A stretch of 64,000 nucleotides of DNA, from assembly GCA_963667175.2 (NCBI GenBank), contig CAXXXF010000014.1, positions 288,001 to 352,000 of the forward strand. Direction: 5' to 3'. Below the pieces are notes generated by a model. That model had not been told where the DNA came from. It made no database searches and saw only the letters and a program-made list of their open reading frames with translations. Shown here one piece after another: positions 6,645-36,563 of this stretch; the first letter of the stretch is position 1; each line of letters starts with the position of its first letter. A program made the translations under genes and the position numbers. Source of the DNA: Candidatus Latescibacterota bacterium. Its GTDB lineage: Bacteria; Latescibacterota; UBA2968; GCA-2709665.

Positions 6645-6809
6645 ATGAGTTCCACCCTTGTCTTGTCGCGTCCAAGGGGACGAAAGAACGCGTGGGCCGT
6701 TCCTGAACGACACCCGTCCGCGGGATCAGGAGCGCGCGGGGCATTCCGAGTCGGCTTCTGAGACGCCGGCGCAGGGGATTCGCCGGTCCTGCAGGCTATG
6801 ACACAATCG

Positions 6810-10666: not shown

Positions 10667-10696
10667 AGGGAACTCATCGTGTCGCGTGAGGCCGGG

Positions 10697-11752
10697 TCAG
10701 GTCAGCTTCATTCTGGGATCGGCATCCAGGTCCCGCCCCGACCGCTCGCCTCTGCCCAGCCGGAACCCTCCTGCGCAGGCGATCATCGCCGCATTGTCCG
10801 TACACAGGACCGGCGGCGGAAAACAGACCTCGGCGCCGAAGTCGCGGGCGGCGTGCCGCATCTCTTCCCGCAGCCGCCGATTCGCCGCCACGCCCCCCGT
10901 CAGCAGAATCCGTCTCAGACCCAGGGCGCGCGCGGCCTTTATGGTCTTTTCCACGAGAACGTCGACAACCGCGGCCTGAAAACTGGCCGCTATGTCCGCG
11001 CGTTCCGCAGCCGCATCGGCATCGGACCGGCTTTTCAGGTGGTACAGTACCGAAGTCTTGATCCCGCTGAAGCTGAACTCGAATCCCTCCCGATGCCGGA
11101 GCCCTCGCGGAAACGCAAACGCGTCGGCGTCACCCCGTTCCGCCAGTTCGGCAATGACCGGGCCGCCCATGGTCGTTTCGCCGGCCTTCAGCATGCCCAG
11201 CATCTTCGCGACCTTGTCGAAGGCTTCCCCTGCCGCGTCGTCCCTCGTTTCGCCGCGGATTTCGTACAAACCCCACCGGCGCACGTGGATCAACTGGGTA
11301 TGGCCGCCGGAAATCACCAGGGCGAGAAAGGGCGGGCACAGGTCGGGTTCCGCCAGCAGTCCCGCGAAGAGATGTCCCTCGATATGATGTACGCCGATCA
11401 GCGGACGTCCGCTTCCAAGCGCCATCCCCCTGGCAGCTGAGATACCCACGAGAAGACACCCGACGAGACCCGGCCCACGGGTGACCGCGATGCCGCCGAG
11501 GTCGTCCAGCCCGATTCCGGCCTGATCCAGGGCTTCTCGTACAACCGGCAAGATCTTGCGCACGTGGTTCCGCGACGCCAGTTCGGGAACGACACCGCCG
11601 TACAGGCTGTGCTCCGTTTGTGAAAAGATGATATTCGACAGAATACGGCCACCGGCAACGACCGCGGCAGCCGTTTCGTCACACGACGTCTCGATGCCGA
11701 GTACAGGACGATCCCATGCGGGCTGAACGGAGTCCCTGGATTGATCAGACAT
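10697..11752 (-). CDS. tsaD: tRNA N6-adenosine threonylcarbamoyltransferase
   Basis: LGIETSCDET, GGVVPELASR.H, HHIEGH, DDAAGEAFDK, TDNAAMIA. Confidence 0.97.
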   Translation of the reverse strand: MSDQSRDSVQPAWDRPVLGIETSCDETAAAVVAGGRILSNIIFSQTEHSLYGGVVPELASRNHVRKILPVVREALDQAGIGLDDLGGIAVTRGPGLVGCLLVGISAARGMALGSGRPLIGVHHIEGHLFAGLLAEPDLCPPFLALVISGGHTQLIHVRRWGLYEIRGETRDDAAGEAFDKVAKMLGMLKAGETTMGGPVIAELAERGDADAFAFPRGLRHREGFEFSFSGIKTSVLYHLKSRSDADAAAERADIAASFQAAVVDVLVEKTIKAARALGLRRILLTGGVAANRRLREEMRHAARDFGAEVCFPPPVLCTDNAAMIACAGGFRLGRGERSGRDLDADPRMKLT

Positions 11753-11997
11753 CTGGGCGTTAGAGAATCAAAGGGAGGCGGAAATAAGACACCACCCCCG
11801 CTGATCAGGGGATGGTCCCGCGCGAGGTGGAAAAAAATGAAATCCGGTTGAAAGAAACTTTCAAGAGATGAGCCAGCGTCCGGTGGCAGCGAGTCACCGG
11901 GGCCGCGAAGAATCCGTCCGCCGTCCTGGATATCGGATCTATCGGCGCCGGACGCGCGATGCGAGACCCTCAAGTGGGACGCGGCCGCATGTCCGGG

Positions 11998-12189
11998 TTA
12001 TTTGTACGACTCGGCGACGTTTCTTCCCATGCTGATCTCGCCGTTATCGATGCGCAGATTGAACCCGCAGTCCGGGCTGCTGCAAACCCAGGCCTTATAG
12101 TGAATGGGCGCGCCGTCGCGCCCGTAGTCGGACAGCGGCAGCAAAACACCCCTATCGCACTTCAGACACCGCGGCAGTTGATTTTCCAT
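11998..12189 (-). CDS. Small (63 aa) zinc-ribbon-like protein of unknown function
   Basis: CxxC ... CxxxxC motif pair, strong SD (GGAGGGGAGG) and its own promoter. Confidence 0.7.
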   Translation of the reverse strand: MENQLPRCLKCDRGVLLPLSDYGRDGAPIHYKAWVCSSPDCGFNLRIDNGEISMGRNVAESYK

Positions 12190-12340
12190 CCTGACCCTCC
12201 CCTCCACGTGATTTGCGGCTCCTCCCGTAATGGGCCGCCAGGTACCGCGTATCCGCTCCGCACGACGTGAAAATACGCTGCGGCAAAGTGGATCGTTGAC
12301 GCCGGAAACGACTGGCCCACTTTATATTAACAGACATGCA

Positions 12341-12369
12341 AAATTACGTAAACGAGGCGTTAAAGTCAA
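12341..12369 (-). promoter_or_regulatory. Sigma70-type promoter for the Zn-ribbon gene / tsaD operon
   Basis: Minus strand TTGACT-N17-TAATTT. Confidence 0.55.
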
Positions 12370-12415
12370 ATAATTCTCTTCGAAATCGTCACGGGAGCCG
12401 GTCGGTCGAAACCGA

Positions 12416-12444
12416 TTGACAATGGGTTCCGCCATGCGTATCCT
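12416..12444 (+). promoter_or_regulatory. Sigma70-type promoter for the XPB helicase
   Basis: TTGACA-N17-TATCCT. Confidence 0.6.
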
Positions 12445-12562
12445 TAACCCGCCTTTGCAACGGCATTATTCTCGAAATTCCTTGCGGCAGGCAACGGCGT
12501 GCCGCAACGGGTCTCTGCCGACCCCCTTTCTCCCGGCGACCGTCCGCCTGTCTCTATCCTCT

Positions 12563-14266
12563 ATGTCATACAACGCCCAAAATCCACTCATCGTGCAGAG
12601 CGATATGACCGTTCTCGCGGAGGTCGGCGGACCGCGGTACGAAGCCGCACGGGACGTTCTGGCCCGCTTCGCCGAGCTGGAAAAAAGCCCCGAGTATATC
12701 CACAGCTACCGCATCAGCCCGCTTTCGCTCTGGAACGCCGCCGCCGCGGGGCTCACGGCCGACGAAATCACGGGCGCTCTGGAGTCCTTCAGCAAATACG
12801 AAATCCCTCAGAACGTCTCCGTTGAAATCCGGGAGACGATGGGGCGGTACGGCCGGATTCGCCTGGAGCGGTCCGGGAAAAATCTCGTCCTCTCCGCCGA
12901 CGATCCGCTGCTCATCACCGAAATCTGCCGGCACAAGTCGGTACGGCCGTATCTGAACCGGAGGATCGACGAGCGGCGCCTCAAAATCGACCTGCTGTAC
13001 CGGGGCCACCTGAAACAGGCGCTTACCCGCATCGGCTTTCCCGTCAAGGACCTCGCCGGGTACGTGCCCGGCCGGCGCCTGACGCTGCAGCGGCGCGCGA
13101 ACACCCTGGCCGGCGCGCCGTTTCACCTGCGCGACTACCAGCGGGAGGCCCTGGAAATCTTCCACGCCGGCGGCGGACCGGAGGGCGGCAGCGGGGTGGT
13201 GGTGCTTCCCTGCGGCGCGGGCAAGACCATCGTCGGCATCGCCGCGCTCGAACGCCTGCAGACGCAGGCGCTCATCCTCACCACCAACGTTACCGCCTCG
13301 CGACAATGGAAAGCGGAACTCCTGGACAAGACGGATCTGAAGCCGGACCAGATCGGCGAATACTCCGGGGAGGTCAAAGAGATCCGCCCCATCACCGTCG
13401 CAACGTACAATATCCTCACCTACAGGAAGAAGAGGGGCGATGCGTTTCCCCACTTCGCCATCTTCAACCAGGGAAACTGGGGCATCATCATCTACGACGA
13501 GGTCCATCTGCTTCCCGCGCCGGTCTTCCGCTTTACCGCCGAACTGCAGGCGAGACGCCGGCTGGGCCTCACCGCCACGCTTGTGCGCGAGGACGGCCTG
13601 GAAGCGGACGTTTTCAGCCTGATCGGCCCGAAACGCTTCGACGTGCCCTGGCGAGACCTGGAGTCCCGGGGCTGGATCGCCACCGCGGAGTGCCGTGAAA
13701 TCCGCCTTCCCTTGCCCCAGGACCTGCGCCTGGACTATGCCGTTGCCGGGGGCCGCGGAAAATTCCGGATTGCGTCCGAGAATCCGTCCAAAATCCCACT
13801 GGCCAAACAGCTCATCCGGAAACACGACAAGGACCAGATCCTGGTGATCGGCAAGTACGTCGACCAGGTAGAAACCTTCGCCAGAGAACTGAATGCGCCC
13901 GTAATCACCGGCAAGACGCCCAGCGAGGATCGCGACCTGCTCTACGATCGCTTCCGGAAAGGGGAATTACGGCTGATGGTCGTTTCCAAGGTGGCCAATT
14001 TCGCCGTCGACCTGCCGGACGCCAACGTGGCCATCCAGATTTCGGGCACGTTCGGTTCCCGGCAGGAAGAGGCCCAGCGGCTGGGGCGCATCCTGCGGCC
14101 GAAGGCCAACGGCAGCCTCGCCCATTTCTACACCCTGGTTACCCGGGACACCCGGGAACTGGAGTTCGCGCGCAAGCGCCAGATGTTTCTCACCGAACAG
14201 GGTTACCGGTATTCCATTCGGGACGCCGCCGATGTCTTCGAGGGATCCGGCGCCGCTCCGGTCTGA
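12563..14266 (+). CDS. XPB/Ssl2/Rad25-like DNA repair helicase
   Basis: FAELEKSPEYIHSYRI N-domain, VLPCGAGKT, DEVH, LGLTAT, GSRQEEAQRLGRILRPK. Confidence 0.92.
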   Translation: MSYNAQNPLIVQSDMTVLAEVGGPRYEAARDVLARFAELEKSPEYIHSYRISPLSLWNAAAAGLTADEITGALESFSKYEIPQNVSVEIRETMGRYGRIRLERSGKNLVLSADDPLLITEICRHKSVRPYLNRRIDERRLKIDLLYRGHLKQALTRIGFPVKDLAGYVPGRRLTLQRRANTLAGAPFHLRDYQREALEIFHAGGGPEGGSGVVVLPCGAGKTIVGIAALERLQTQALILTTNVTASRQWKAELLDKTDLKPDQIGEYSGEVKEIRPITVATYNILTYRKKRGDAFPHFAIFNQGNWGIIIYDEVHLLPAPVFRFTAELQARRRLGLTATLVREDGLEADVFSLIGPKRFDVPWRDLESRGWIATAECREIRLPLPQDLRLDYAVAGGRGKFRIASENPSKIPLAKQLIRKHDKDQILVIGKYVDQVETFARELNAPVITGKTPSEDRDLLYDRFRKGELRLMVVSKVANFAVDLPDANVAIQISGTFGSRQEEAQRLGRILRPKANGSLAHFYTLVTRDTRELEFARKRQMFLTEQGYRYSIRDAADVFEGSGAAPV

Positions 14267-15242: not shown

Positions 15243-17249
<2,007 letters not shown>

Positions 17250-17327
17250 CAACCTGCGAAAGCCCGTCGCAGACCGCTCGACGGATTGTAATCCCCGGAC
17301 CGGAGCTCCCGACTCAGGCCTTTTCGC

Positions 17328-17356
17328 TTGACAGAAAACCGACGCTTTGTTACACT
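17328..17356 (+). promoter_or_regulatory. tRNA promoter
   Basis: TTGACA-N17-TACACT about 20 nt upstream of the tRNA. Confidence 0.75.
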
Positions 17357-17377
17357 TCCACCACATTGCCCAGCGGT

Positions 17378-17453
17378 GGGGCTGTAGCTCAGCTGGGAGA
17401 GCGCATGACTGGCAGTCATGAGGTCGTCGGTTCGATCCCGATCAGCTCCACCA
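17378..17453 (+). tRNA. tRNA-Ala (GGC)
   Basis: Cloverleaf: GGGGCTG/CAGCTCC acceptor stem with G3:U70, anticodon arm CATGA-CTGGCAG-TCATG, GGTTCGA T-loop, encoded CCA. Confidence 0.98.
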
Positions 17454-17462
17454 TGAAATCAG

Positions 17463-17497
17463 AAACAGGCTTGCGCCACGCGGCGCAAGCCTGTTTT
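17463..17497 (+). terminator. Intrinsic terminator after tRNA-Ala
   Basis: AAACAGGCTTGCGCC-acgc-GGCGCAAGCCTGTTTT perfect hairpin with T tail. Confidence 0.85.
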
Positions 17498-17510
17498 GGT
17501 TTTGGTGATG

Positions 17511-17554
17511 CCCTCACCCGACGTTGCGCGTCACCCTCTCCCAGAGGGAGAGGG
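17511..17554. repeat. Palindromic REP-like repeat family R1 (CCCTCACCC...CCCTCTCCC..GGGAGAGGG), intergenic copy
   Basis: Nearly identical to 18461-18504. Confidence 0.85.
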
Positions 17555-17758
17555 TATGATTGGGGAGGAGGTGAACCGGTGGAGGAATTCGGCATGTCAG
17601 CGCGTACTCGCCGCTTAGTGTCGCGAATCGCGACAGTTGTACGTATACGATCCCGGTTTCAATTAACCTGTTTTACGTTGACTGAAATTCCTGCGTGGTA
17701 TACTTTAAAGGTGTACATTAGATCAGCTAAGGAATGGTAAACCGGGGAGCTATACACG

Positions 17759-19399
17759 ATGGCGAAGGGTCGACGAAAAAAGACCAGGACGGATGCCGAA
17801 TCCAGCGAAGCTACGGATTTCCGATCCAAACTATGGGCGATGGCAGACGCGTTGCGGGGCAGCATGGACGCCGCCGAATACAAGCACGTCGTCCTGGGTC
17901 TGATCTTCCTCAAGTACATTTCGGACGCGTTCGAGGAAGCCCATGCCAGGCTCGTGGAAGAAATCGCTGAAGGAGCAGACCCGGAAGACCCTGACGAGTA
18001 TCGCGCCCAGAGCATCTTCTGGGTGCCGCCGGAAGCGCGTTGGAAACAGCTTCAGGCGCAGGCGCGGCAACCAGCCATCGGACGTGCGGTTGACGATGCA
18101 ATGGCCGCCATAGAACGGGATAATCCCGTGCTCAAGGACGTCTTGCCAAAGGACTATGCCCGTCCCAACCTGGACAAGACTCGCCTGGGGCAGGTGGTGG
18201 ACCTGGTTACCAACATTAACGTGGGCGGGGCAAAAGCCCGGGCGACGGACGTGCTCGGAAGCGTCTACGAGTACTTCCTGGAGCAATTCGCACTGGCTGA
18301 GGGCCGGAAGGGCGGCGAGTTTTACACCCCGCGCTCGGTAGTGCGTCTGCTGGTTGAGATGCTGGAACCCTACAAGGGGCGGGTCTACGACCCGTGTTGC
18401 GGCTCCTCGGGGATGTTCGTTCAGTCGATGGCGTTCATTGACGCCCATACCGGTGGGATACCCTCACCCGACGCTACGCGTCACCCTCTCCCAAAGGGAG
18501 AGGGTATGACTGTAGATAAGGCAGGCGGCGGAAGGGGCGATATCTCTATCTACGGACAGGAGTCCAACTACACCACCTGGCGAATGGCAAGGATGAACCT
18601 CGCGATTCGCGGCATCGACGGCCGAATCGAGCACGGGGACAGCTTCCACAACGACCGGCATCCGGACATGAAGGCCGACTACATCCTCGCCAATCCGCCC
18701 TTCAACGTGTCGGACTGGGGCGGCGACAGGTTGCGCGAGGACAGACGGTGGGAATTTGGCGTCCCACCCGCAGGTAACGCGAATTTTGCGTGGGTGCAGC
18801 ACTTCCTTTCTCACCTTGCGCCGCGCGGCATCGCCGGCTTCGTACTGGCCAACGGCTCCATGTCGTCCAACCAGTCGAACGAGGGGGAAATCCGGAAGAA
18901 TATCATCGAGGCCAACCTCGTGGACTGCATCGTCGCCCTGCCCGGCCAACTCTTCCGGTCGACGCAGATCCCCGCGTGTCTGTGGTTTCTGTCAAGGGCG
19001 CCCTCACCCGGGGGAGGCGCGAGGGTGCGCGGTGGCGAAACCCTCTTCATCGACGCCCGAAAGCTGGGTCATCTGGTCGACCGGACGCACAGGGACCTCT
19101 CGCCGGAAGACATCGCCCGGGTCGCGGACACCTACCACGCCTGGCAAAACGGAGAGGGCTACGACGACGTTCCAGGGTTCTGCAAGAGCGCATCGCTCGA
19201 AAAGATCCGTAAACACGGCCACGTCCTCACGCCCGGCCGCTACGTCGGCGCTAAGCCGCAGCCGGAAGATGGTGAACCCTTTGAGGAGAAGATGTCCCGT
19301 CTCGCGAAGCAGTGGCGCGAACAGCAGGTCGAGGCCGCAAAGCTGGATGCCGCTATTGAGAAGAATCTGAGAAAGCTTGGCTTTGGAGACGATCGATGA
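17759..19399 (+). CDS. hsdM: Type I RM N6-adenine methyltransferase subunit
   Basis: [38 protein letters not shown]. Confidence 0.96.
18461..18504. repeat. R1 repeat copy embedded in frame in hsdM
   Basis: ccctcacccgacgctacgcgtcaccctctcccaaagggagaggg, read as [15 protein letters not shown]. Confidence 0.85.
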
Positions 19400-19614
19400 C
19401 CTACACTGACGATGAGATCAAACGCCAACTTCGTCTGGGCGAGGACAGCCAGTGGGAGTTCAAACGGAACGAATTTTCCGGGAACCGGCTGCGAAATCCT
19501 GGCCGCGATGATTGGGCCGACGAGATCGCCGCCTTTGCCAACTCGAACGACGGCACACTGCTTTATGGCGTCACTGACGCGGGGGATATTCAGGGCATGT
19601 CGCGCGAGCATTGA
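19396..19614 (+). pseudogene. Truncated AlbA_2/Schlafen DNA-binding domain (5' duplicate of the gene at 20406)
   Basis: Near-identical to the first ~70 codons of 20406-22148, then stops. Confidence 0.8.
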
Positions 19615-19674
19615 GAAAGGCCGTCGGAAAAAGAACCGGCACGGGTCAACCCGGCAACGCAAAAGGAGGTCAAG

Positions 19675-19944
19675 ATGTCTGTCCAGAACTATCGGCCCGG
19701 GGAAATTTCCAGTCTGGGCAAGTCTATCTATCAGGAAAAGATCAAGCATCTGGTGGAACCTCAGGAAAATGGGAAGTTCATCGTCATCGACGTGGAAAGC
19801 GGCGAATACGAGATAGACGAACAAGACGTGGTCGCCTCAAGCCGGCTGCGAGAGCGTCGGCCCAACGCCGTTACCTATGGGGTCATCATCGGCTATCGCG
19901 TCGCGTACAGCCTCGGGGGAAGAATCGAGGCTACTGATGATTAG
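19675..19944 (+). CDS. Small hypothetical protein partnered with a clan AA aspartic protease
   Basis: SD AGGAGG, GKFIVIDVESGEYEID motif, overlaps the start of the protease. Confidence 0.7.
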   Translation: MSVQNYRPGEISSLGKSIYQEKIKHLVEPQENGKFIVIDVESGEYEIDEQDVVASSRLRERRPNAVTYGVIIGYRVAYSLGGRIEATDD

Positions 19945-20314
19945 GGGACGAGTAAGCCGTCGTCTGCGCGTCCGACTGCCTATTGAGTTAATTCTCAACG
20001 ACGCCTCTGTCCGATCTGTAGAAGTTGGCCTGGATACGGGGTTTACGGGTGATTTGACATTACCCTCAGAGGTAATACGGCAATGCGGAATGACACCGGA
20101 AGGTGAACGCTCGGTGGTCTTGGCCAACGGCGACGAGGTACATCTGAGGGTCTGGCAAGGCACGACACTCTGGCATGAGAGGCCGTGCCGGGTCAGGGTA
20201 TTCCAAGCGGAGGGTGAACCCTTGCTGGGCATGAACCTGCTACGGGGTAGCCGGGTTACTTTGGACGCTCTGGTCGGCGGTAACGTGGTCATAGAGGAAC
20301 TCGACAGAATGTGA
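19937..20314 (+). CDS. Clan AA (retropepsin-like) aspartic protease
   Basis: LDTGFTG catalytic motif, [12 protein letters not shown]. Confidence 0.8.
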
Positions 20315-20322
20315 ACGGCGAA

Positions 20323-20409
20323 TGGCGCGAACAACAGGCGGAGGCCGCAAAGCTGGATGCTGCGATTGCGGTAAATCTCAAAAAGCTTGGCTTTGGAGAC
20401 GATCGATGA
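20323..20409 (+). repeat. Remnant copy of the hsdM 3' end ([28 protein letters not shown])
   Basis: Aligns with 19313-19399. Confidence 0.88.
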
Positions 20410-22148
20410 CCCACACTGACGATGAGATCAGACGCCAACTTCGTCTGGGCGAGGACAGCTACTGGGAGTTCAAGCAGATCGAATTTTCCGGGAACCGGCT
20501 GAGAAATCCTGGCCGCGATGACTGGGCCGACGAGATCGCCGCTTTTGCCAACTCGAACGGCGGCACACTGCTATATGGCGTCACTGACGCGGGGGATATA
20601 CAGGGCATGTCGCGTGAACAGATGAACGTGCTGGAACGCACGATCGTCGAGCTGTGTACTCAATCGATCAAGCCCCCGCTTTTCGACGTCGTAATCACGC
20701 GTCACGAACTGGATGGCAAAGCACTGTTGTCCGTCTCCGTAGCCAGAGGCGCCGCGCAATACGACAGCCCGGGTGGCAGTTTCCGGCGCGTGGGCAGTTC
20801 CAAACGTCAAATGGGCAGCGACGAACGCATGCGCCTGGCACAACAGCGCGGTCAGGCCCGTTTTCGCTGGTTTGACGAGCAGCCCCTGCCTCAGACCGGG
20901 TTCCGCACGCTGGACGAGGCACTTTGGAAACCCTTGCTCAGCGTGAGCGGGAGGGCCGAACCCCATACGGCCCTAGAAAAACTGGCATTGTTGGGCAGGG
21001 ACGAGGACGGCGCAGTTCGGGCCACTGTGGCTGGGATTCTCCTTTGCACCCACGCGCCTGAGGAGTGGCTTCCCAGCGCTTGCATCACCGCGACCCATTA
21101 TCGCGGCGAGGACCGGGCATCCGGCCAACTCGATGCGCAGATCATCACCGGGCCGATCAACCGGCAGGTGGCGGACGCAATGGCATTTGTAATGCGCAAC
21201 ATGCGCGTTGGGGCGTACAAGAAACCCGCCCGAATGGACCTTCCGCAGTACAGTGCCGAAGCACTTTTCGAGGCGATCGTAAATGCCGTCGCCCATCGGG
21301 ATTATACGATACGAGGCAGTCGAATTCGAGTGTCCATGTTTGCCGACCGCGTGGAAATCAACTCGCCGGGCGGGTTGGCCAACAACCTCACCATCGACAG
21401 CATGGCGGCACGGCAGGCAACGCGCAACGAAACCATCGCGTCCGCGCTCGGGCGAATGCCCGTTGGAGACATTCCCGGGTCTGAAATGCGTCAATTCTTC
21501 ATGGAACGCCGCGGCGATGGTGTTCCCATTATCCTGCGCGAGACCGAGGCGTTGAGCGGTAAACCCCCCAGGTATTGGCTACTTGGCGAGTCAGACCTCT
21601 TTCTTACGTTGCCCGCCAGGGACACCAGTGCCACGCCAGCCACTGTCGTGGTGACGGTACGACGAGATGGTCGCCCGATTTCGGGCGCCGATTCGCTGGC
21701 GATTTTTCCCGATAACACCTGGATACGGGCCACGACGGACGAGAATGGAGAAGCGGCGATGGACCTGTACGCGACAAATCTGCCCATGACCGTGTTCGTC
21801 GCAGCCGGGGGCTATAAAGCATACGTTGAACAAGGGTGGGTTCCGACGAACGGCGCGCTGGCTGTGGAAGTCAAACCGCTTTCCGGCGGCGGCGCGGTGA
21901 TTTTTCCCGAGGCAACCGGCAAGATTCCGGGGCTCAAGGGACAGCTTAATCCCATTCGAGACGCACATGACCGGACCTACCTTTATGCCTCGAACATCGC
22001 CATCAACCAGGGCCAGCCGCAACCCGTTCACTTTTCGTTCGGTGAAGACTTGCGGCTCATAGATTCGAATGGCGTCGAAACGTGCGTGCGCGTCGTCCAA
22101 ATCGAAGGCAGATCGGCATTGGTGGAATATCGGCCATTCAAGGCGTGA
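20406..22148 (+). CDS. AlbA_2/Schlafen DNA-binding plus HATPase_c_4 (RecG-C-like) protein with extra C-terminal domain
   Basis: [46 protein letters not shown]. Confidence 0.82.
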
Positions 22149-22227
22149 ACAGCAGGCCGAGGCCGCTAAGCTGGATGCGGCTATTGAGGCGAACCTGCAA
22201 CGGCTTGGATTTGGAACGGAAGAATAG
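22142..22227 (+). repeat. Second remnant copy of the hsdM 3' end ([27 protein letters not shown])
   Basis: Aligns with 19314-19386, with synonymous and non-synonymous changes. Confidence 0.85.
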
Positions 22228-22230
22228 AAC

Positions 22231-22653
22231 ATGCGCATCAACACCGATTTCCTGATTCGATGCATCAACACACTGGAGTCGGCCTTCAAGGAGTTGCAGC
22301 AGCGAGAGCCATCCGATACCTTCTACGACATATTCCGCGCAGCTTCGGTCAAAGAGTTCGAGATTGTGCTGGAACAGTCCGGCAGCCTGTTGAAAAAGCG
22401 CCTAAGGCCCTACCTGGCCAGCAACAGACACGCGGACAGGCTTACGTTCAAGAATGCGTTCCACCACGCCGCCAAACACGACCTCATCTCCGTGGAAGCC
22501 TGTGAACGCTGGTTTGCTTACCGGGACGACCGGAACGACACCGCCCACGACTATGGCGAAGCCTTTGCCGAAACCACACTCACATTGCTTCCGCAATTCA
22601 TCGTCGATGCCAGAAATCTGGCGAAAATTATCGCAGAGGTCGACGATGACTGA
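22231..22653 (+). CDS. Nucleotidyltransferase substrate-binding (HEPN-like, HI0074-type) protein
   Basis: VKEFEIVLEQSG.LL, RNDTAHDYG (R-x4-H HEPN motif); overlaps the MNT-hsdS start. Confidence 0.85.
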   Translation: MRINTDFLIRCINTLESAFKELQQREPSDTFYDIFRAASVKEFEIVLEQSGSLLKKRLRPYLASNRHADRLTFKNAFHHAAKHDLISVEACERWFAYRDDRNDTAHDYGEAFAETTLTLLPQFIVDARNLAKIIAEVDDD

Positions 22654-24694
22654 CAGATTGGACCTGCCGCAGAGATACCGGAGCATACTCGAGGGGCTGC
22701 TGCGTGAGCATGTGCCCGACGCCGAGGTGTGGGCCTACGGCAGCCGCATCACAGGCGAGAGCCACGAGGGCAGCGACCTGGATCTGGTGGTGAGGGGACC
22801 CGGACTGGAGCCCCTGGGCGACGGCTTCTTCAGCCTGCTGGAAGCGATCGAGGAATCGAACATCCCGATCCTCGTCCAGGCGCACGACTGGGCACTGTTA
22901 CCTGAGAGTTTTCACCCAGAGATAGAGCGGGACTACGTGGTGGTTCAGGGGGACCAAAGCGGAACAGAAAGCAGGTGGACAGCCACCACTTGGGGCGAAC
23001 TTGCAACGTTGGAATATGGAAAGTCGCTCCGTGGGTATGATTCGGCTGAAGGACCTTACAGGGTCTACGGAACCAATGGACCAATCGGCAAAAACAACGA
23101 GCCGCTCTGTCGGCATGCCAGCGTCATCATTGGGCGCAAGGGGGCGTACAGGGGTGTCCATTACTCCCCTGATCCGTTCTTTGTAATCGATACTGCATTT
23201 TACATGAAACCAAAGGTAGACCTCGATACTCGGTGGGCGTACTACCAACTGCTCACTCAGGATATCAATGGCCTCGATAGCGGCTCTGCAATACCGTCAA
23301 CGAGCCGTGAGGATTTTTATGGTCTGCCAGTTGAAGTCCCACCTCTGAAGGAACAACGTGCTATCGCTCATGTTTTGGGAACGCTGGACGACAAGATCGA
23401 GTTGAACCGGCGGATGAACGAAACGCTGGAGGATATGGCGCGGGCGCTCTTCAAGTCGTGGTTCGTCGACTTCGACCCTGTCCACGCCAAAGCCGCGCTC
23501 AGTCAAACTGCAGGTTCTTCATCGCGCGCCCACCCACCTATCACTCCCCCCTTGGGGGGGAGTCGGCAAGACGAGGGCGTCAGCCCGACGTCGCGCCGGT
23601 GGGGGGATATCCGTCGGAAATACACCCGAGAAACCCTCGAAAAAGCCCGCTCACTGCGCCAGACCCAAACCGACGCCGAGGGCCTCCTGTGGCACTACCT
23701 GCGAAATAAGCGATTGGGCGGATACAAATTCCGCCGCCAGCATCCCATGGGCAAGTACATCGCGGATTTTGTTTGTCTGTCGCGGAAGCTGATCATCGAA
23801 CTGGATGGCGGCCACCACGCGAAAGAGAACGACTACGATGAAGAGCGAGACCGCTTCTTGCAGAACGAGGGCTATCGCGTTATGCGGTTCTGGAACAACG
23901 AGATTCTTGAGAGTTGTATGGGCGTGTTGGAGAAAGTGTTCGACGCATTGGAGTTCCCCCCTCCGCCGCCGGAGGCGGCGACTCCCCCCCAAGGGGGGAG
24001 TGATGGCGAGGTGTCATCGGGTTGGACAATCGAACGGGCTCGCGCGTATCTCGACAAGATGGACCCGTCCATCGCGGCGCTGTTCCCCGATCGCTTCGTC
24101 GATTCGGAATTGGGCGAGATCCCGGAGGGGTGGGAGGTGAAGGCGTTGGGGGATGTAGCGAATCAACGGAGAAACGGACTAACTCCAGAGCAGATTGACC
24201 CAAGTGCGCCGTATATAGGGCTTGAACATATGCCCCAACGCTCCATTGCACTTTCGGAATGGACCAACGCGGATGGACTCGTTAGCGGAAAGAGCAGATT
24301 TGAAGAAGGTGACATCCTGTTTGGCAAACTAAGGCCTTACTTCCACAAGGTAGGCGTCGCTCCAGTCGAAGGAGTATGCTCGACCGATATAGTTGTTATA
24401 TCACCAATATCTGCGCATTGGTTCGGGGTTGTCCTTGGACACACGTCCAGCAAGCAATTCGTTGACTATACGGATGCCGCATCAACCGGTACCAGAATGC
24501 CGCGCACCAAATGGAAAGACATGGCATTATATGGGTTTGCGCTACCGGGCGTCGAAATCGCCTGTGGCTACAATGCACTCATCCAACCCTGGATTGAGAG
24601 AATGCTGTCAGCGATCCACGAATGTCGAATGCTCGCTAAGCAAAGGGTTGAACTGCTGCCGAGGTTGGTTTCCGGCATTGTGCGGATTGGATAA
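22646..24694 (+). CDS. hsdS: Type I RM specificity subunit with N-terminal MNT domain and in-frame DUF559 nuclease insertion
   Basis: AYGSR...SDLDL (MNT); TRD1 ...EQRAIAHVLGTLDDKIELN; LFKSWFVDF; DUF559; DSELGEIPEGW; TRD2 ...LLPRLVSG. Confidence 0.9.
   Translation: MTDRLDLPQRYRSILEGLLREHVPDAEVWAYGSRITGESHEGSDLDLVVRGPGLEPLGDGFFSLLEAIEESNIPILVQAHDWALLPESFHPEIERDYVVVQGDQSGTESRWTATTWGELATLEYGKSLRGYDSAEGPYRVYGTNGPIGKNNEPLCRHASVIIGRKGAYRGVHYSPDPFFVIDTAFYMKPKVDLDTRWAYYQLLTQDINGLDSGSAIPSTSREDFYGLPVEVPPLKEQRAIAHVLGTLDDKIELNRRMNETLEDMARALFKSWFVDFDPVHAKAALSQTAGSSSRAHPPITPPLGGSRQDEGVSPTSRRWGDIRRKYTRETLEKARSLRQTQTDAEGLLWHYLRNKRLGGYKFRRQHPMGKYIADFVCLSRKLIIELDGGHHAKENDYDEERDRFLQNEGYRVMRFWNNEILESCMGVLEKVFDALEFPPPPPEAATPPQGGSDGEVSSGWTIERARAYLDKMDPSIAALFPDRFVDSELGEIPEGWEVKALGDVANQRRNGLTPEQIDPSAPYIGLEHMPQRSIALSEWTNADGLVSGKSRFEEGDILFGKLRPYFHKVGVAPVEGVCSTDIVVISPISAHWFGVVLGHTSSKQFVDYTDAASTGTRMPRTKWKDMALYGFALPGVEIACGYNALIQPWIERMLSAIHECRMLAKQRVELLPRLVSGIVRIG
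23540..24004 (+). mobile_element. Putative DUF559 (Vsr-like endonuclease) element with perfect 26-bp inverted repeats
   Basis: ATCACTCCCCCCTTGGGGGGGAGTCG (23540-23565) and its exact reverse complement (23979-24004) flank ARSLR..T.AE..LW..LR...FRRQHP..YIADF..IIELDGG.H..D.ERD..L...GY.V.RFWN; span 465 bp = 155 codons. Confidence 0.75.
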
Positions 24695-24747
24695 TCCAAC
24701 GAGAAAATGTCAGTAAATGTCAGTATAAGAAATATGAACCTCGAAGG

Positions 24748-27051
24748 ATGTTTGCAATTGAGAGTTGGTCCAACATGAAACGAAGACGAAGAGCGAAACG
24801 AAAACGCGGCGCAAGGAATACGAAACCTGAAGAGAACAGCTTCCAGGTTATCAGATTTTCACCTCCCCGACTCGACCGCGAAAAATCCGAAGGGCGTTTT
24901 CGTGTGAAAAAGGACGAATGTGAGGTCAAGTTTCGTGAGCTAGTCCATTCTCTGTCTGGTCGTTTTCGCAATAGATATCCACCACAGATTATATCGATTG
25001 TCGCGGCCTATGGGTTACATCGACAGGTAACTAGCAAGGGGGTCAGTGAAAGGGCGTTTGTCGACGTGATTCAACAGTATCACGTTGAGTTCCTACAGGC
25101 CTTGGCGCTTACGATTTCCAAAAACGAGTGGGGCAGTAAGCCAGTAACGCCAGACATTGTCCAAGCGACTATCGACGAAGTTATCGAGTTGGGAGAATCG
25201 TTCCGAATAATGCGGCAATCTGCATTGCAGAATGAACACGACAAGGAAGAACAAGCCGTGCTGGCTTTAAGAGATCGACTTCGCACACACACTCAGATTT
25301 CGCGCAACTGGGGATATCGTACAGCTATGGTGGAAGATTCAGTCGAGCTGTACAGCCCCTTGGACTCGACATTACAGAACCACTACGGATTCAGTGCAAC
25401 GGACGTGATTGAAGTAGCGATAACCCTCATCAGAGTGATGGAGAACCGCGCTGCTGAACATTGGACAATGGCCAGCGAGATTCTTCGATCGCGGAATGTT
25501 CGTCTGGTCGCCAAACGACTCTTTGCCCAATATTCGGACAGCGAGGTCGAACCTGGTGAATTCGAACGTGCATTTCCGGAAAGTCTTGATAACAACGCTG
25601 TAGAGGCGCGTATATGGTCACTTATGGACACCAATCTATTACATCTGTTTCTTTTCGACTGTGAGAGAGTTGCCGAAGAATCCGGCCGATCAATCGAAAT
25701 TGTATCGCGAGTACTACGGAAACTATCTATGGGTCCCGGTGATCTCGCCCAAAACAAACCACATGAATTTCTCCTCAACAACCCGATTTGGGTTGCACCT
25801 GGTGTTATCACCGCGGGAGATTTCTTTTTCCCGATGCCGCAGATTGTACTCAGCCACATCCACGGGCTCATGCGCATTCTCGCCAAGTGCGCGGGTTTTA
25901 CAGACAGACTATATAAGCGACGATCTAAATTTCTCGAAAATAGAGTGTATGACACGATTCGTCGAATTCTTCCTTCTGCCCATTTGACTAAGAATGTAGA
26001 ATGGCGAATTGATGGAACCCGTTTCGAGACGGACCTACTCGGCAGGGTCGATCGGGTTGTGTTAATTGTGGAAGCAAAGTCCGGAGCGCTTACTGCCCAA
26101 GGCCTGCGAGGAGTTCCCTTGCGGATAAAGCGTCATGTGCACGACCTAGTTGTTAGTCCAGCAAAGCAATCTGCACGACTTGAGCAATTGATCTGGCAAG
26201 CGAAGTCAGGCGAGACCGTTGCAGCGGACGCGATTTCCGCGTTGGGTTTGGAACCAGACAAAATAGACACTGTCATTAGAATGTCGGTGACGCTTGACGA
26301 TTTCTCCATGATGGCGATTGCTGAACGGGAACTGAGGGCAGCGGGATGGATTCCGCCTGAGCTCCAAATAGCACCTACATTGACATTCGCAAATCTTGCA
26401 ACCGTAGTCGACGTACTTCACGAGCCAGCGTATTTTCTGCACTATTTCGCCGGACGTGAACGCACTCAGAAAACGATCGATCTGATAGGCGATGAGATGG
26501 ATTTGCTCGGCCTTTATTTGGAGACTGGTTTCAATATTGCAGAAAAGGAACTTGAGGGGGGCCCATTCATCACCTCTGGACTGTCTCGACAAGTGGATCA
26601 GTTTTACAATAGTGCCGATGCTGGTGTCGAAGTACGTAAACCACGACCAAAGATCCATCGCACATTAGAAAAAATCGTCCTCTATATCCAGAATAAGCGG
26701 ATGGAGGCCTGGTCGACAATCGCGCTTGATCTTCTGCGCATCGGATCTCTTGATGAGCAAAGGATGATTTTTCAGGACGTTCAGAGGCTACGAAAACGAG
26801 TAGCCAAGACTTATCGCGACCCGGCACACATTTGCTCGGAGTTTGTAGTTCCCGCAGAACACATCGATGCGTTTATTATATTTTATGTATTTCCCAATGC
26901 AATAGCCGGCGGTCGTTTCAAAGTGGCTGAAGAATTAGCCCGCCGTCAATTCGCAGTTCACGATCGATCTCGCTGCATAATAGTCGGAAAAATGATCGAA
27001 TCCTGGGACAAGCCTTATCAGTTTGTGGCCGTCTATAACAATCCAAAATAA
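24748..27051 (+). CDS. Large hypothetical protein with NERD/PD-(D/E)xK-like motif
   Basis: 767-aa ORF in lower-GC DNA; ETDLL...LIVEAKS. Confidence 0.7.
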   Translation: MFAIESWSNMKRRRRAKRKRGARNTKPEENSFQVIRFSPPRLDREKSEGRFRVKKDECEVKFRELVHSLSGRFRNRYPPQIISIVAAYGLHRQVTSKGVSERAFVDVIQQYHVEFLQALALTISKNEWGSKPVTPDIVQATIDEVIELGESFRIMRQSALQNEHDKEEQAVLALRDRLRTHTQISRNWGYRTAMVEDSVELYSPLDSTLQNHYGFSATDVIEVAITLIRVMENRAAEHWTMASEILRSRNVRLVAKRLFAQYSDSEVEPGEFERAFPESLDNNAVEARIWSLMDTNLLHLFLFDCERVAEESGRSIEIVSRVLRKLSMGPGDLAQNKPHEFLLNNPIWVAPGVITAGDFFFPMPQIVLSHIHGLMRILAKCAGFTDRLYKRRSKFLENRVYDTIRRILPSAHLTKNVEWRIDGTRFETDLLGRVDRVVLIVEAKSGALTAQGLRGVPLRIKRHVHDLVVSPAKQSARLEQLIWQAKSGETVAADAISALGLEPDKIDTVIRMSVTLDDFSMMAIAERELRAAGWIPPELQIAPTLTFANLATVVDVLHEPAYFLHYFAGRERTQKTIDLIGDEMDLLGLYLETGFNIAEKELEGGPFITSGLSRQVDQFYNSADAGVEVRKPRPKIHRTLEKIVLYIQNKRMEAWSTIALDLLRIGSLDEQRMIFQDVQRLRKRVAKTYRDPAHICSEFVVPAEHIDAFIIFYVFPNAIAGGRFKVAEELARRQFAVHDRSRCIIVGKMIESWDKPYQFVAVYNNPK

Positions 27052-27472
27052 CCAACGAAGATTGCTGGTTTCCAAGTAAGTGCCGTGTTTTCTATCTGGT
27101 AATTTCCAGATCCGATCACCTTCGATTTGGAAACAAGCGGGATTAAGTGGACTATGAACTTCAAACCTGATCTGATTGACGGAGTGCGAGGCGAAGATTG
27201 CTTGAATCGAGAATTCTCTCAGATGGGCGTTGTCGTAGTGGAAGCTGCAAGGCGAACGCGATTGTGGTCACAGTCAAAGAAATGCAATAAACAAAGTTTG
27301 TCCGATCGCTTTCCAGGAGATCCGTTATCCAGAGGGTAGTCACAGCCGTCGTTCAGGCAGAAACGTCTCCGTCTGATCGGACACGTCACCCTTGGCCAGA
27401 TGCACTTGGGCGACACAGCTATATGTGTGTCGGCAACCAACGTATAAACCCATATTTGGTAGGTGGACTTTT

Positions 27473-27862
27473 ATGGCAATAAAACGAGCGTTTATCAGCT
27501 TTGATTTTGATCACGACGAGGAACTTCGTGACGCCCTGGTGGGTCAGGCAATAAATGCTGACTCTCCATTCAGAATCTCAGACTGGTCGGTACATGAACC
27601 CTTCGATTCCAACTGGAGACAGAAAGTAAGGGACAGAATCCGAAGAACTGACTTGACGATCGTGATTTGTGGTGAGCACACTCACACAGCGAAGGGCGTG
27701 GCAGCCGAGGTGTCCATCGCCCAAAAAGAGAATAAACCGTATTTCTTGCTCTGGGGGCGACCCAAAAAGATATGCAAGAAACCCGCCAATGCCTATGCAA
27801 ACGACAAGATTTACAAGTGGGATTGGAAAATCCTGAAGAAGCTGATTGCAGGAGAAAGATAG
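27473..27862 (+). CDS. Stand-alone TIR-domain protein (ThsB/DUF1863-like)
   Basis: RAFISFDFDHD, DWSVHE, IVICGEHT.TA.GV..E (catalytic Glu position). Confidence 0.82.
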   Translation: MAIKRAFISFDFDHDEELRDALVGQAINADSPFRISDWSVHEPFDSNWRQKVRDRIRRTDLTIVICGEHTHTAKGVAAEVSIAQKENKPYFLLWGRPKKICKKPANAYANDKIYKWDWKILKKLIAGER

Positions 27863-27866
27863 GAAT

Positions 27867-28376
27867 ATGGGTGAGCCAAGTATGGTCCTGTTCAGTCAGG
27901 CGAAAGAGAACTATGGTGACTCTTTCAACACGCACCTTCTGGAGCAGTATAAGCTTTACGTGCAGTCGGCGGAGAACGTGAGCGCGCGGAGAGTGGCATC
28001 GAGCCGATATCTGCTGACACTCAACTCGGCCCTCGTCGCGTTGTACGGACTTCAGTCGGCAGATCTTGACCAGAACTATTGGGCGTTGCTGATTCCCGTT
28101 GTGGGAATTAGAATATCCGTGCTTTGGTATCGGATCATCAAGTCGCACGCCGACCTGAACCGCGTCAAGTTCAAGATCATTTACGTACTGGAGGATCATC
28201 TGCCAGCAGCGATGTATAAATATGAGTGGCATTTGGCTGAGGAGGGCAGAGGAAAGACCTATCGTACAGTAACAACCTTCGAAAAGTGGGTACCTGTTGT
28301 GTTCGGGGCGCTGCACGTGGCTTTGGCGATCACAATCGTCTTGACAATCGCAGGTTTATTGGATTGCGTTCAATGA
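27867..28376 (+). CDS. Small multi-pass membrane protein, putative effector of the TIR gene
   Basis: LLEQYKLYV.SAE.VS.RR, LN.VKF.II..LE..LP...Y..EW, about three hydrophobic segments; starts 4 nt after the TIR stop. Confidence 0.75.
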   Translation: MGEPSMVLFSQAKENYGDSFNTHLLEQYKLYVQSAENVSARRVASSRYLLTLNSALVALYGLQSADLDQNYWALLIPVVGIRISVLWYRIIKSHADLNRVKFKIIYVLEDHLPAAMYKYEWHLAEEGRGKTYRTVTTFEKWVPVVFGALHVALAITIVLTIAGLLDCVQ

Positions 28377-33038: not shown

Positions 33039-33398
33039 GACGACCAGGCGATTCTTACCCAAGGATTCGGGGTCCACGTTCGTTGCGCCATCCACGGAAT
33101 TCGTCGAATTAGCGTTTCTGGCGCGGATGTTCATTTTATGAAGGGGGCCGTAGCATTCCCGGCTTGAGCAACTCCCGGCTGGACTCGATCCCGTTGGATT
33201 GCGTTTGTTATCTCACATATTCCCCAACGGAGCGCCTGACAGTTTGATGCCTCACGCCTCGCGATCTTTCGGATGGGCTGAGGCATCATCTTTGTACGCT
33301 TCCGATCCTGAATCGCGTGACGCACGACAAAGCCATTCAGCGTCGGCCCGTCGATGTCCAGGGTACAGACCGATAAACATCCCTTCACAGGAACCCCC

Positions 33399-36563
<3,165 letters not shown>

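Follow-up and report, generated by a model that had tools for sequence, protein, structure and literature searches.

Three hsdM 3′-ends in a type I restriction–modification operon of a Candidatus Latescibacterota bacterium: probable scars of two successive gene insertions

A stretch of 64,000 nt (hereafter, the window) from a Candidatus Latescibacterota bacterium (contig CAXXXF010000014.1 of assembly GCA_963667175.2, positions 288,001 to 352,000) was analysed. It contains a type I restriction–modification (RM) operon, with hsdM, hsdS and hsdR on one strand, in which the 3′-end of hsdM is present three times. The first of these copies, or tails (T1–T3), precedes a truncated AlbA gene and a two-gene cassette, the second a full-length AlbA gene, and the third a HEPN gene and an MNT–hsdS fusion. 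The three tails are, on balance, probably the scars of two successive gene insertions into this one operon. The best reading of the data is serial homology-anchored capture, in which the second junction would have been illegitimate and guided by microhomology near the end of the anchor.

The source genome is metagenome-derived (5.5 Mb, 18 contigs, 4.75% contamination). For relatives, 60 related genomes were searched at the DNA level, and 20 loci were then fetched and mapped. Related genomes are designated by G numbers, loci by L numbers, families by f1–f3 and public metagenome runs by X1, X2 and X4; L019, L029 and L056 are the loci of G009, G016 and G109, respectively, and L086 is that of a Binatia metagenome-assembled genome (MAG). 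Tails were compared over their first 25 codons (75 nt). The share of sampled words present in any one public run is at most 0.29, and contigs from these runs are accordingly taken to represent related strains; no single contig covers the whole stretch, and no RNA run is listed as containing it.

The last 87 nt of hsdM (19313–19399) recur at 20323–20409 and 22142–22227, with 84–88% identity. In the alignment, the left ends of the three copies agree within 1 nt, at (T)GGCG(C/T)GAACA. A repeat search returned a direct repeat of 298 nt (19313–19610 and 20323–20620, 91% identical), so that copies 1 and 2 extend 211 nt beyond the 87 nt tail into the AlbA gene, as well as a 74 nt family with three copies at 19314, 20324 and 22142 that are 84–85% identical to the reference copy. 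When positions 19300–19410 were used to query the whole 5.5-Mb genome, three places only were found (E values of 1.9e-52, 5.8e-29 and 3.3e-16), the next match having an E value of 0.02. It is apparent that the tail repeat is real, local and far beyond chance. An initial annotation, made from the letters of the window alone, had placed three hsdM tails with a nearly identical starting point at these positions, and the repeat search, the alignment and the genome search confirm it. The 211 nt extension and the two-gene cassette between copies 1 and 2 had been overlooked.

All of the features in this part of the window lie on the + strand. T1 (19313–19399) is the 3′-end of the working hsdM gene and is 95% identical to the hsdM tail of G009; its stop codon overlaps the ATG of the truncated AlbA gene, AlbA′ (ATGA). 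AlbA′ (19396–19614, 72 aa) matches the Pfam family SLFN_AlbA_2 over profile positions 1–49 of 118 only; it forms the second part of repeat copy 1 and is 93–94% identical to the start of the full AlbA gene. The cassette that follows comprises orf89 (19675–19944), which encodes a small protein with no match in Pfam, NCBIfam or PADLOC, and orf125 (19937–20314), the product of which resembles clan AA (DTGF) aspartic proteases (TIGR03698 with an E value of 6.7e-13, below the model cut-off, and a weak gag-asp_proteas match). T2 (20323–20409) is a relic of an hsdM 3′-end and lies within a 32-codon mini-ORF (open reading frame; 20311–20409). The full AlbA gene (20406–22148, 580 aa) encodes AlbA_2 and HATPase_c_4 domains according to Pfam, and weak matches to models associated with prokaryotic Argonaute (pAgo) proteins were found in PADLOC and NCBIfam. 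T3 (22142–22227), also a relic, has no start codon beside the AlbA stop. The next gene encodes a HEPN protein of the HI0074 family (22231–22653, 140 aa; Pfam NTase_sub_bind, E value of 8e-15; TIGR01987), and is followed by the MNT domain fused in frame to HsdS (22646–24694; Pfam NTP_transf_2, Methylase_S and, in the central region, DUF559). The translation of the latter ORF is free of stops. The Pfam assignments agree with the genes that the initial annotation had placed after each tail.

The divergence among the tails was examined in terms of hsdM alleles in other genomes. T1 matches the working hsdM tail of G009 at 71/75 nt and T3 that of G012 at 70/75 nt, as compared with only 59–64/75 nt among the three tails themselves. 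These values bear out the earlier suggestion that the tails come from different hsdM alleles. The conserved residues REQQ.EA..LD..I..NL..LGFG are kept in all three, and no stop codon, frameshift or indel is present in the 25-codon core (through ..LGFG) of any of them. The synonymous differences and the unlike final residues pointed out in the initial annotation were found as described; T2 and T3 differ at 3, 3 and 10 sites in codon positions 1, 2 and 3, respectively. The final 12–16 nt of each tail track the gene that follows, being of an AlbA type or a HEPN type: the window and G009 both have GGAGACGATCGATGA 5′ of AlbA (close variants of it occur in G002, G011 and G012), and GGAACGG..GAATAGAAC-ATG/GTG is found 5′ of HEPN in the window and in G007. 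This pattern of divergence appears to be that of working hsdM alleles and not that of decay following duplication.

Three junctions were resolved against the native contexts of their partners in other genomes. Each of them (J2, J3 and J5) falls on an 8 nt microhomology, and the three share the core GCGYGA. At J5, the first 8 nt of T3, GGCGTGAA, are also the native end and stop of AlbA: native AlbA ends in G002, G011, G009 and G012, from a set of 12 other homologues, read ..GCG TGA A.. as in the window. The GGCGTGAA of the window continues into CAGCAGG.. of the tail, the tail in hsdM begins TGGCGCGAACAGCAGG, and the join lies within GGCGYGAA, with 7/8 positions matching. The apparent C-to-T change at the start of T3 is the stop codon of AlbA itself. 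No tail follows AlbA in any of the 12 other homologues.

J3 lies at the start of T2, where the octamer TGGCGCGA occupies 20323–20330. In G109, the stop codon of orf125 overlaps the start of an 89 aa hsdS remnant (MSGEWREV...), ATGAGCGGCGAATGGCGCGAGG. In the window, GTGAACGGCGAATGGCGCGA is followed by tail sequence, and the departure from G109 falls exactly after TGGCGCGA. This octamer matches at 8/8 positions and encodes W-R-E in both HsdS and HsdM. T2 is thus fused in frame, on TGGCGCGA, to seven codons of a foreign hsdS start (V/M-N-G-E-W-R-E). The GTG of the resulting mini-ORF overlaps the stop of orf125 (GTGA), and its own stop overlaps the start of AlbA (ATGA). J2 (19600–19612) joins the AlbA 5′ part to the orf89 leader on the octamer TCGCGYGA. 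The orf89 leader begins TCGCGTGAG in G057c1 and G074, and AlbA carries TCGCG(C/T)GA at nt ~204. In G057c1 a full AlbA gene is followed 72 nt on by the orf89 leader, and therefore a deletion between the two octamers would give AlbA′. The common left end of the copies would be accounted for by microhomology and not by a dedicated site. The initial annotation had proposed, by way of example, homology-anchored recombination with an illegitimate second junction; the second half of that proposal is supported by the three microhomologies, while the homologous crossover on the left was not located.

Contigs from the public metagenome runs show alleles of intermediate structure. In an 843 nt contig from X2, hsdM up to 19318 is joined directly to 22147–22677, with 2828 nt skipped and an ambiguity of 10 nt; there are 18 mismatches in the 154 nt of the hsdM part and 29 in the 531 nt of the tail–HEPN part. 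This is an hsdM–T3–HEPN allele without cassettes. A 2598 nt contig from the same run comprises hsdM (18803–19263), 329 other letters, and then 20321–22004 with 52 mismatches in 1684 nt; here T2 and AlbA stand at the end of a full-length hsdM gene, at 97% identity. The 329 letters are of the size expected for an in-frame hsdM insert of about 280 nt such as that in G009 and G016. (That insert lies at aa 504/505 in L019 and L029, 13 codons 5′ of the tail start; the hsdM gene of the window is without it.) The hsdM part of this contig is only 92% identical to the window (37 mismatches in 461 nt), as compared with 97% for the T2–AlbA part, a contrast that fits a swap of the hsdM 3′ region along with the last insertion.

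A 1368 nt contig from X4 covers 21147–22514 unbroken with 40 mismatches, and so the AlbA/T3/HEPN junction is present in another strain, 3% diverged and from another study. Contigs from X1 cover 19197–19714 (5 mismatches), 19854–20272 (0) and 20244–20372 (0), and bridge the AlbA′/orf89 and orf125/T2 junctions. The hsdM–T2–AlbA and AlbA–T3–HEPN adjacencies lie on separate contigs from different runs. Together, the contigs fit a series that runs from hsdM–HEPN, through the addition of AlbA, to the addition of AlbA′/orf89/orf125. Serial capture, as first suggested by the initial annotation, is supported by the cassette-free allele and by these two separate adjacencies, and the expectation that a tail and its downstream gene should be found behind hsdM elsewhere was borne out for T2–AlbA (after a full-length hsdM in X2, at 97%) and for T3–HEPN (after hsdM in X2 and G007).

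To address the origin of the cargo, 132 genomes were searched with the DNA of orf89/orf125. Matches were obtained in 0/14 genomes of the window's own genus, 0/21 of family f1, 0/31 of family f2 and 12/76 of family f3, and the orf89 protein has 84–89% aa identity to homologues in family f3 genomes. None of the genomes searched from the window's own family yielded the cassette, which is clearly from another family. The type I locus of G074 that contains orf89/orf125 also contains AlbA and HEPN/MNT. In G109 (L056, original coordinates 4935–13873), orf89, orf125 and the 89 aa hsdS remnant follow mutS and have SIR2_2 and KAP NTPase genes next to them; they are part of a type I operon that was moved into a different defence island. 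Mosaic structure is also evident in the full AlbA gene: its first ~211 nt, together with the preceding tail, are similar to sequences from the window's own genus (80–85%), while the remainder is of the G057c2 type (81–92%), the own-genus type being only 53–57% identical just past the switch. The foreign RM loci invoked by the initial annotation are thus supported for the orf89/orf125 cargo; most of the donors are instead alleles of the same locus in related strains.

On the basis of what was observed, namely repeats that diverge in the manner of alleles, microhomologies at the junctions, alleles of intermediate structure and a cargo of foreign origin, the following series may be proposed for serial homology-anchored capture; the order of events, the homologous crossover on the left and the route of DNA entry are inferred. 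The oldest state would have been hsdM–T3–HEPN–MNT/hsdS. Incoming DNA from another allele of the locus, hsdM–T2–AlbA, would then have recombined through hsdM homology on the left, while on the right the native end of AlbA, GGCGTGAA, would have been connected with the near-identical octamer with which the resident tail begins, GGCGCGAA, leaving that tail behind AlbA as T3. In a second step, hsdM–T1–AlbA′ (truncated)–orf89–orf125–hsdS DNA would have entered likewise, the first codons of the donor hsdS (..GAA TGG CGC GA) being joined on the right to the identical octamer TGGCGCGA at the start of T2. The C-terminal ~43–60 residues of HsdM contact the coiled coil of HsdS and are required for assembly (PMC2647291). 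Because HsdM needs these residues, only events that bring a fresh tail would keep the system working, and each incoming hsdM copy would supply the intact C-terminal helix. A relic would also be unavoidable: because the next gene starts on the hsdM stop (ATGA), a junction that keeps this gene and its start signals must fall inside hsdM.

The ligA–hsdM...hsdS locus is conserved in the genus, and the content of the hsdM–hsdS interval varies. No recognized cassette gene is present in G008, G010 or G005; HEPN plus MNT are found in G007, with the same tail–HEPN junction as in the window, AlbA plus MNT in G011 and G002, and AlbA plus orf89 in G057c1. Extra pieces of hsdM, with boundaries unlike those of the window, were observed in G009 (DUF559 plus hsdM aa 412–543, after AlbA), G015 (aa 450–544, after AlbA), G057c2 (aa 488–545, 3 kb upstream of the full gene) and G003 (hsdM aa 1–218, a repeat element, a tail, AlbA and then a full hsdM).

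The census took in 83 loci that have a full hsdM of this family followed by 3 kb or more of sequence, comprising cross-phylum loci, loci of the class and the window. Extra C-terminal fragments of hsdM were found, across phyla, in 11 of the 83: L065, L070, L071, L086 (two), L106, L133, G009, G015, G057c2, G003 and the window (two). The cargo families AlbA, orf89 and HEPN/MNT recur behind this hsdM family in distant phyla. In the Binatia MAG, for example, an AlbA homologue, orf89-like genes and a HEPN-like gene lie behind it at 10001–16000 of L086, with two relic hsdM ends. The tails of L106, which surround one 146 aa gene, are near-identical to each other, while those in other loci have diverged. 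A scan of metagenomes with a degenerate tail pattern yielded 75 distinct matches from 80 fetched loci. Sixty-two tails could be judged, of which 50 follow an hsdM body, 4 have no body and 8 have a partial body; of the remainder, 11 lie too near a contig end and 2 are chance matches. A cruder motif classifier over-called, flagging 16 relics of which about 6 hold by eye.

Other explanations of the three tails were considered. That strain variants were mis-joined during metagenome assembly is hardly credible. The genome is metagenome-derived and related strains with other arrangements co-occur in the public runs, but every junction is bridged by a public-run contig, one of them from another study at 97%, and like structures exist in the complete single-contig genomes G009 and G015. 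Collapse or mis-joining is, moreover, not expected, because the copies differ by 9–16%. Local duplication of the hsdM end in this genome, once or twice, followed by random decay would account for copies within 3 kb of each other, in the same orientation and with a common left end, and a near-identical tail pair does exist elsewhere (L106). It is nonetheless very improbable, and was largely refuted: T1 and T3 are closer to the working hsdM of other species than to the other copies in the window, the differences are enriched at third codon positions with conserved residues kept and no stops or indels, and the cargo between the copies comes from another family. In addition, the last 12–16 nt of each tail match the following gene as they do in other genomes, and single-tail alleles before AlbA or HEPN exist. 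Both of these alternatives had been raised in the initial annotation; bridging contigs contradict the one and allele affinities the other.

A dedicated cassette system, in which the tail or its first octamer is the attachment site of a recombinase and tail-plus-gene units move in the manner of integron cassettes, was given comparably little credence. Five relics from four genomes and several phyla (T2 and T3 of the window, G003, L065 and one relic of L133) start within ±3 nt of the same W-R-E codon, all three junctions of the window have GCGYGA in common, and the same kinds of cargo recur behind this hsdM family in distant phyla. The other relics, however, start at −18 (L071), −27 (L106), +12 (L086) or +27 nt (L070), or more than 100 nt upstream and in some cases hundreds, and the native sequence of each junction partner explains the octamer. 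The tails fold no better than shuffled sequences (z values of 0.45, 0.37 and −0.68), with no structure common to the copies. No integrase, resolvase or transposase domain was detected with Pfam among 24 ORFs (10 from ligA through hsdS/orf767, and 14 that include the hsdS–hsdR interval and two ORFs upstream of ligA), some of which belong to no family. The absence of a recombinase domain and of a structured site, and the variable relic boundaries among genomes, led to the rejection of an integron-like or other site-specific system.

The strongest of the alternatives, judged possible though still unlikely, is that a circularized fragment of tail plus cargo integrated by one crossover, either in the tail (87 nt) or in the tail and AlbA 5′ part (298 nt), and so duplicated that stretch. 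Direct octamers bound both units (TGGCGCGA at position 20323 and at the donor-type hsdS start; GGCGCGAA where the tail begins and GGCGTGAA where AlbA ends), and the repeat formed by copies 1 and 2 coincides precisely with what a circle of this kind would have in common with its target, from the tail start up to the point at which AlbA′ is cut; the variation in identity over the 298 nt would fit a crossover inside the tail. The near-identical tails around the single gene of L106 also conform to such an event. In an Escherichia coli assay of homology-facilitated illegitimate recombination (HFIR), 56/60 selected recombinants were single crossovers of a circular molecule, with a duplication shown by PCR, and the 14 sequenced carried duplications of 109–950 bp (PMC3240628). 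Around RM genes, insertions that lack a mobility gene and duplicate a long, variable stretch of the target, often over start or stop codons, are likewise documented (PMC2853133). On the other hand, neither a circle nor an excision product was seen, the predicted closure junction is present in 0/12 other AlbA homologues and 0/2 other orf125 homologues, and 87 nt at ~85% identity are a poor substrate for RecA. The contrast described above between the hsdM 3′ region and T2–AlbA in the X2 allele suggests, furthermore, that hsdM itself was exchanged.

Several observations weigh against serial homology-anchored capture. The left homologous crossover was not located, and a single crossover of a circle gives the same product. 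The best match of T2 among the working tails of assembled genomes is 63/75, as compared with 64/75 to T1, and the attachment of T2 to hsdM is seen on one metagenome contig; such contigs may themselves be chimeras, and X1 is possibly the sample from which the assembly came. The identity of repeat copies 1 and 2 is uneven, at ~80% by eye over about the first 60 nt of the tail and 82% over the first 100 nt, versus 93–94% in the AlbA part, and therefore later gene conversion or mosaic donors must be assumed. The switch in the AlbA mosaic lies no more than ~45 nt from the octamer at which AlbA′ is truncated; this is read here as the edge of the last conserved block, and could instead mark one linked event. 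Finally, both relic tails of the window begin at one octamer, as do, within ±3 nt, relics in G003, L065 and L133, and microhomology accounts for this only after the fact. Because no hsdS 5′ remnant is recognizable before the relics of L065, L133 and G003, the coincidence of W-R-E in hsdS and hsdM explains T2 only. Candidate reasons for the predominance of short relics and the shared octamer are GC-rich microhomology, which is a property of HFIR, removal of longer repeats through recombination, and selection to keep the upstream stop intact.

A bolder idea, considered rather improbable, is that the hsdM tail is a portable docking module. A tail-flanked gene would loop out and re-enter any hsdM of the family by homologous recombination, the octamer at W-R-E would be a preferred breakpoint, and the relic mini-ORFs would keep ribosomes coupled. 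If true, this would amount to an integrase-free exchange of cassettes in type I operons that builds defence islands across phyla.

The remainder of the locus, with ligA, the tRNA gene, hsdM and hsdR on the + strand, was annotated as follows. Upstream, ligA (15252–17249) is followed by a tRNA gene (17378–17450), the sole match in the Rfam scan and a possible landmark for island integration. A 16 bp terminator-like hairpin is situated after it at 17462–17497, just 5′ of hsdM. The hsdM gene (17759–19399, 546 aa) is intact (Pfam HsdM_N and N6_Mtase, E value of 1e-100; PADLOC MTase_I) and carries an in-frame repeat-element insert at 18457–18541. The element, which bears a palindrome with the core ACCCTCTCCC-AGAG-GGGAGAGGGT, is 65 nt long and lies in frame at 18457–18521; a second copy is present in the hsdM leader, at 17507–17571. 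In relatives the hsdM copy is missing or copies are found at other sites of the locus, and the genome itself has 4 long matches only. A scan of 17200–25000 for promoters and terminators gave counts at shuffle level, with only weak terminator-like sites, inside genes, between hsdM and hsdS; this is consistent with a single operon, yet is no evidence for one.

Downstream, HsdS carries the MNT partner of HEPN as an N-terminal fusion, and the frame is continuous in several relatives as well (L024, L026, L027, L023, L031 and L055); in the distant locus L106 the fusion is a 537 aa ORF. The DUF559 block of HsdS, a Vsr-like endonuclease domain at 23531–24013, lies between 35 nt inverted repeats (23531–23565 and 23979–24013). 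In relatives (loci L023, L026, L028 and L029), a homologous block is present in frame at about aa 415 of hsdM, in G007, G002, G013 and G016, within single ORFs of 718–796 aa. Directly 3′ of hsdS is orf767 (24748–27051, 767 aa), for which no match was found in Pfam, NCBIfam or PADLOC. It is kept after hsdS in G015, G007 and G013 (58–63% aa identity), and its atlas neighbours are hypothetical proteins, one cluster having NERD in 15% of its members. Between hsdS and hsdR, a ThsB-like TIR gene (27392–27862) overlaps a gene for an 8xMP octameric membrane protein (27846–28376). The hsdR gene (33354–36563, 1069 aa; Pfam HSDR_N, SWI2_SNF2 and T1RH-like_C) lies 8.6 kb 3′ of hsdS, and directly 3′ of it is a gene for a protein with AAA-ATPase_like and PDDEXK_9 domains (36742–38289).

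The proposed process may be compared with several known ones. In bacteria capable of transformation, HFIR reportedly combines a homologous anchor with a second junction at a short GC-rich microhomology near that anchor (de Vries and Wackernagel 2002, Prudhomme 2002, and Meier and Wackernagel 2003). The second junctions in the window likewise lie on microhomology: J3 on TGGCGCGA (8/8), J5 on GGCGYGAA (7/8) and J2 on TCGCGYGA. Classical events are reported usually to delete recipient DNA, whereas the window would have gained a short duplication.

Insertion with long target duplication around RM genes was reportedly noted by Nobusato et al. in 2000. As set out in Furuta et al. 2010 (PMC2853133), the insertions of RM genes lie between direct repeats, tens to hundreds of bp long, of which a relative with an empty site has a single copy. 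The window is alike in having repeats of 87 and 298 nt (>30 bp), an empty site in the X2 contig (19318 to 22147) and in G007 (hsdM–tail–HEPN), and no mobility domain in or beside the insert among the ORFs scanned, some of which have no family; the repeats often span a start or stop codon, with the target gene left intact. It differs in that the insert there is an RM system (homologues of R and M), whereas here the RM operon is the target and the cargo consists of AlbA_2/HATPase_c_4, orf89 and the DTGF protease-like gene. The repeats there are copies of the target, alike when formed, while those of the window are 84–91% alike and come from different alleles; L106, unlike the window, does have alike repeats. 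The window also has two stacked insertions.

Strings of orphan C-termini in Rhs and contact-dependent inhibition (CDI) loci have reportedly been described (Jackson 2009 and Poole 2011). For type VI secretion system (T6SS) effector–immunity arrays in Vibrio cholerae, sequential displacement has been described and HFIR proposed (PMC5361080). As portrayed there, these arrays resemble the window in their conserved upstream anchor gene, downstream of which new modules push older ones together with a displaced 3′ stub, and in modules that resemble those of other strains; the corresponding order in the window is T1–cassette, T2–AlbA, T3–HEPN. In the arrays, it is the toxin, as the variable 3′ part, that is displaced, and immunity genes are retained. 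In the window, by contrast, hsdM would have been restored each time with nothing lost, the stubs are short methylase ends, and the cargo genes are not toxin–immunity pairs of hsdM; the microhomologies at the junctions are also resolved.

Accessory defence genes inside type I RM operons are exemplified by PrrC in EcoprrI, as described in the available passages of PMC12707154. The window is similar in that non-RM defence genes are nested among the hsd genes and probably co-transcribed with them; those passages mention neither a route of entry nor relic hsdM ends. In EcoKI, hsdM and hsdS are reportedly coupled in translation (PMC3510504). The hsdM end of the window also overlaps the start of the next gene (ATGA), and the T2 mini-ORF keeps overlaps on both sides, through which coupling may be maintained.

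Defence genes are often nested in type I operons, and records of how they enter without breakage of the operon are rare. Literature searches, which excluded subscription papers and supplements, returned no description of relic hsdM ends. The window offers a stepwise record, with an empty allele, intermediate adjacencies, a two-cassette allele, exact junctions and a reason for the scar. Roughly one related locus in eight, with many phyla represented, has similar scars, which could serve to mark and to order insertions into defence islands. The process is a variant of known ones, namely homology-anchored illegitimate recombination, long target duplication and displacement arrays; the value of this case lies not in a new mechanism, but in its resolved junctions, its observed intermediates and its frequency across phyla.

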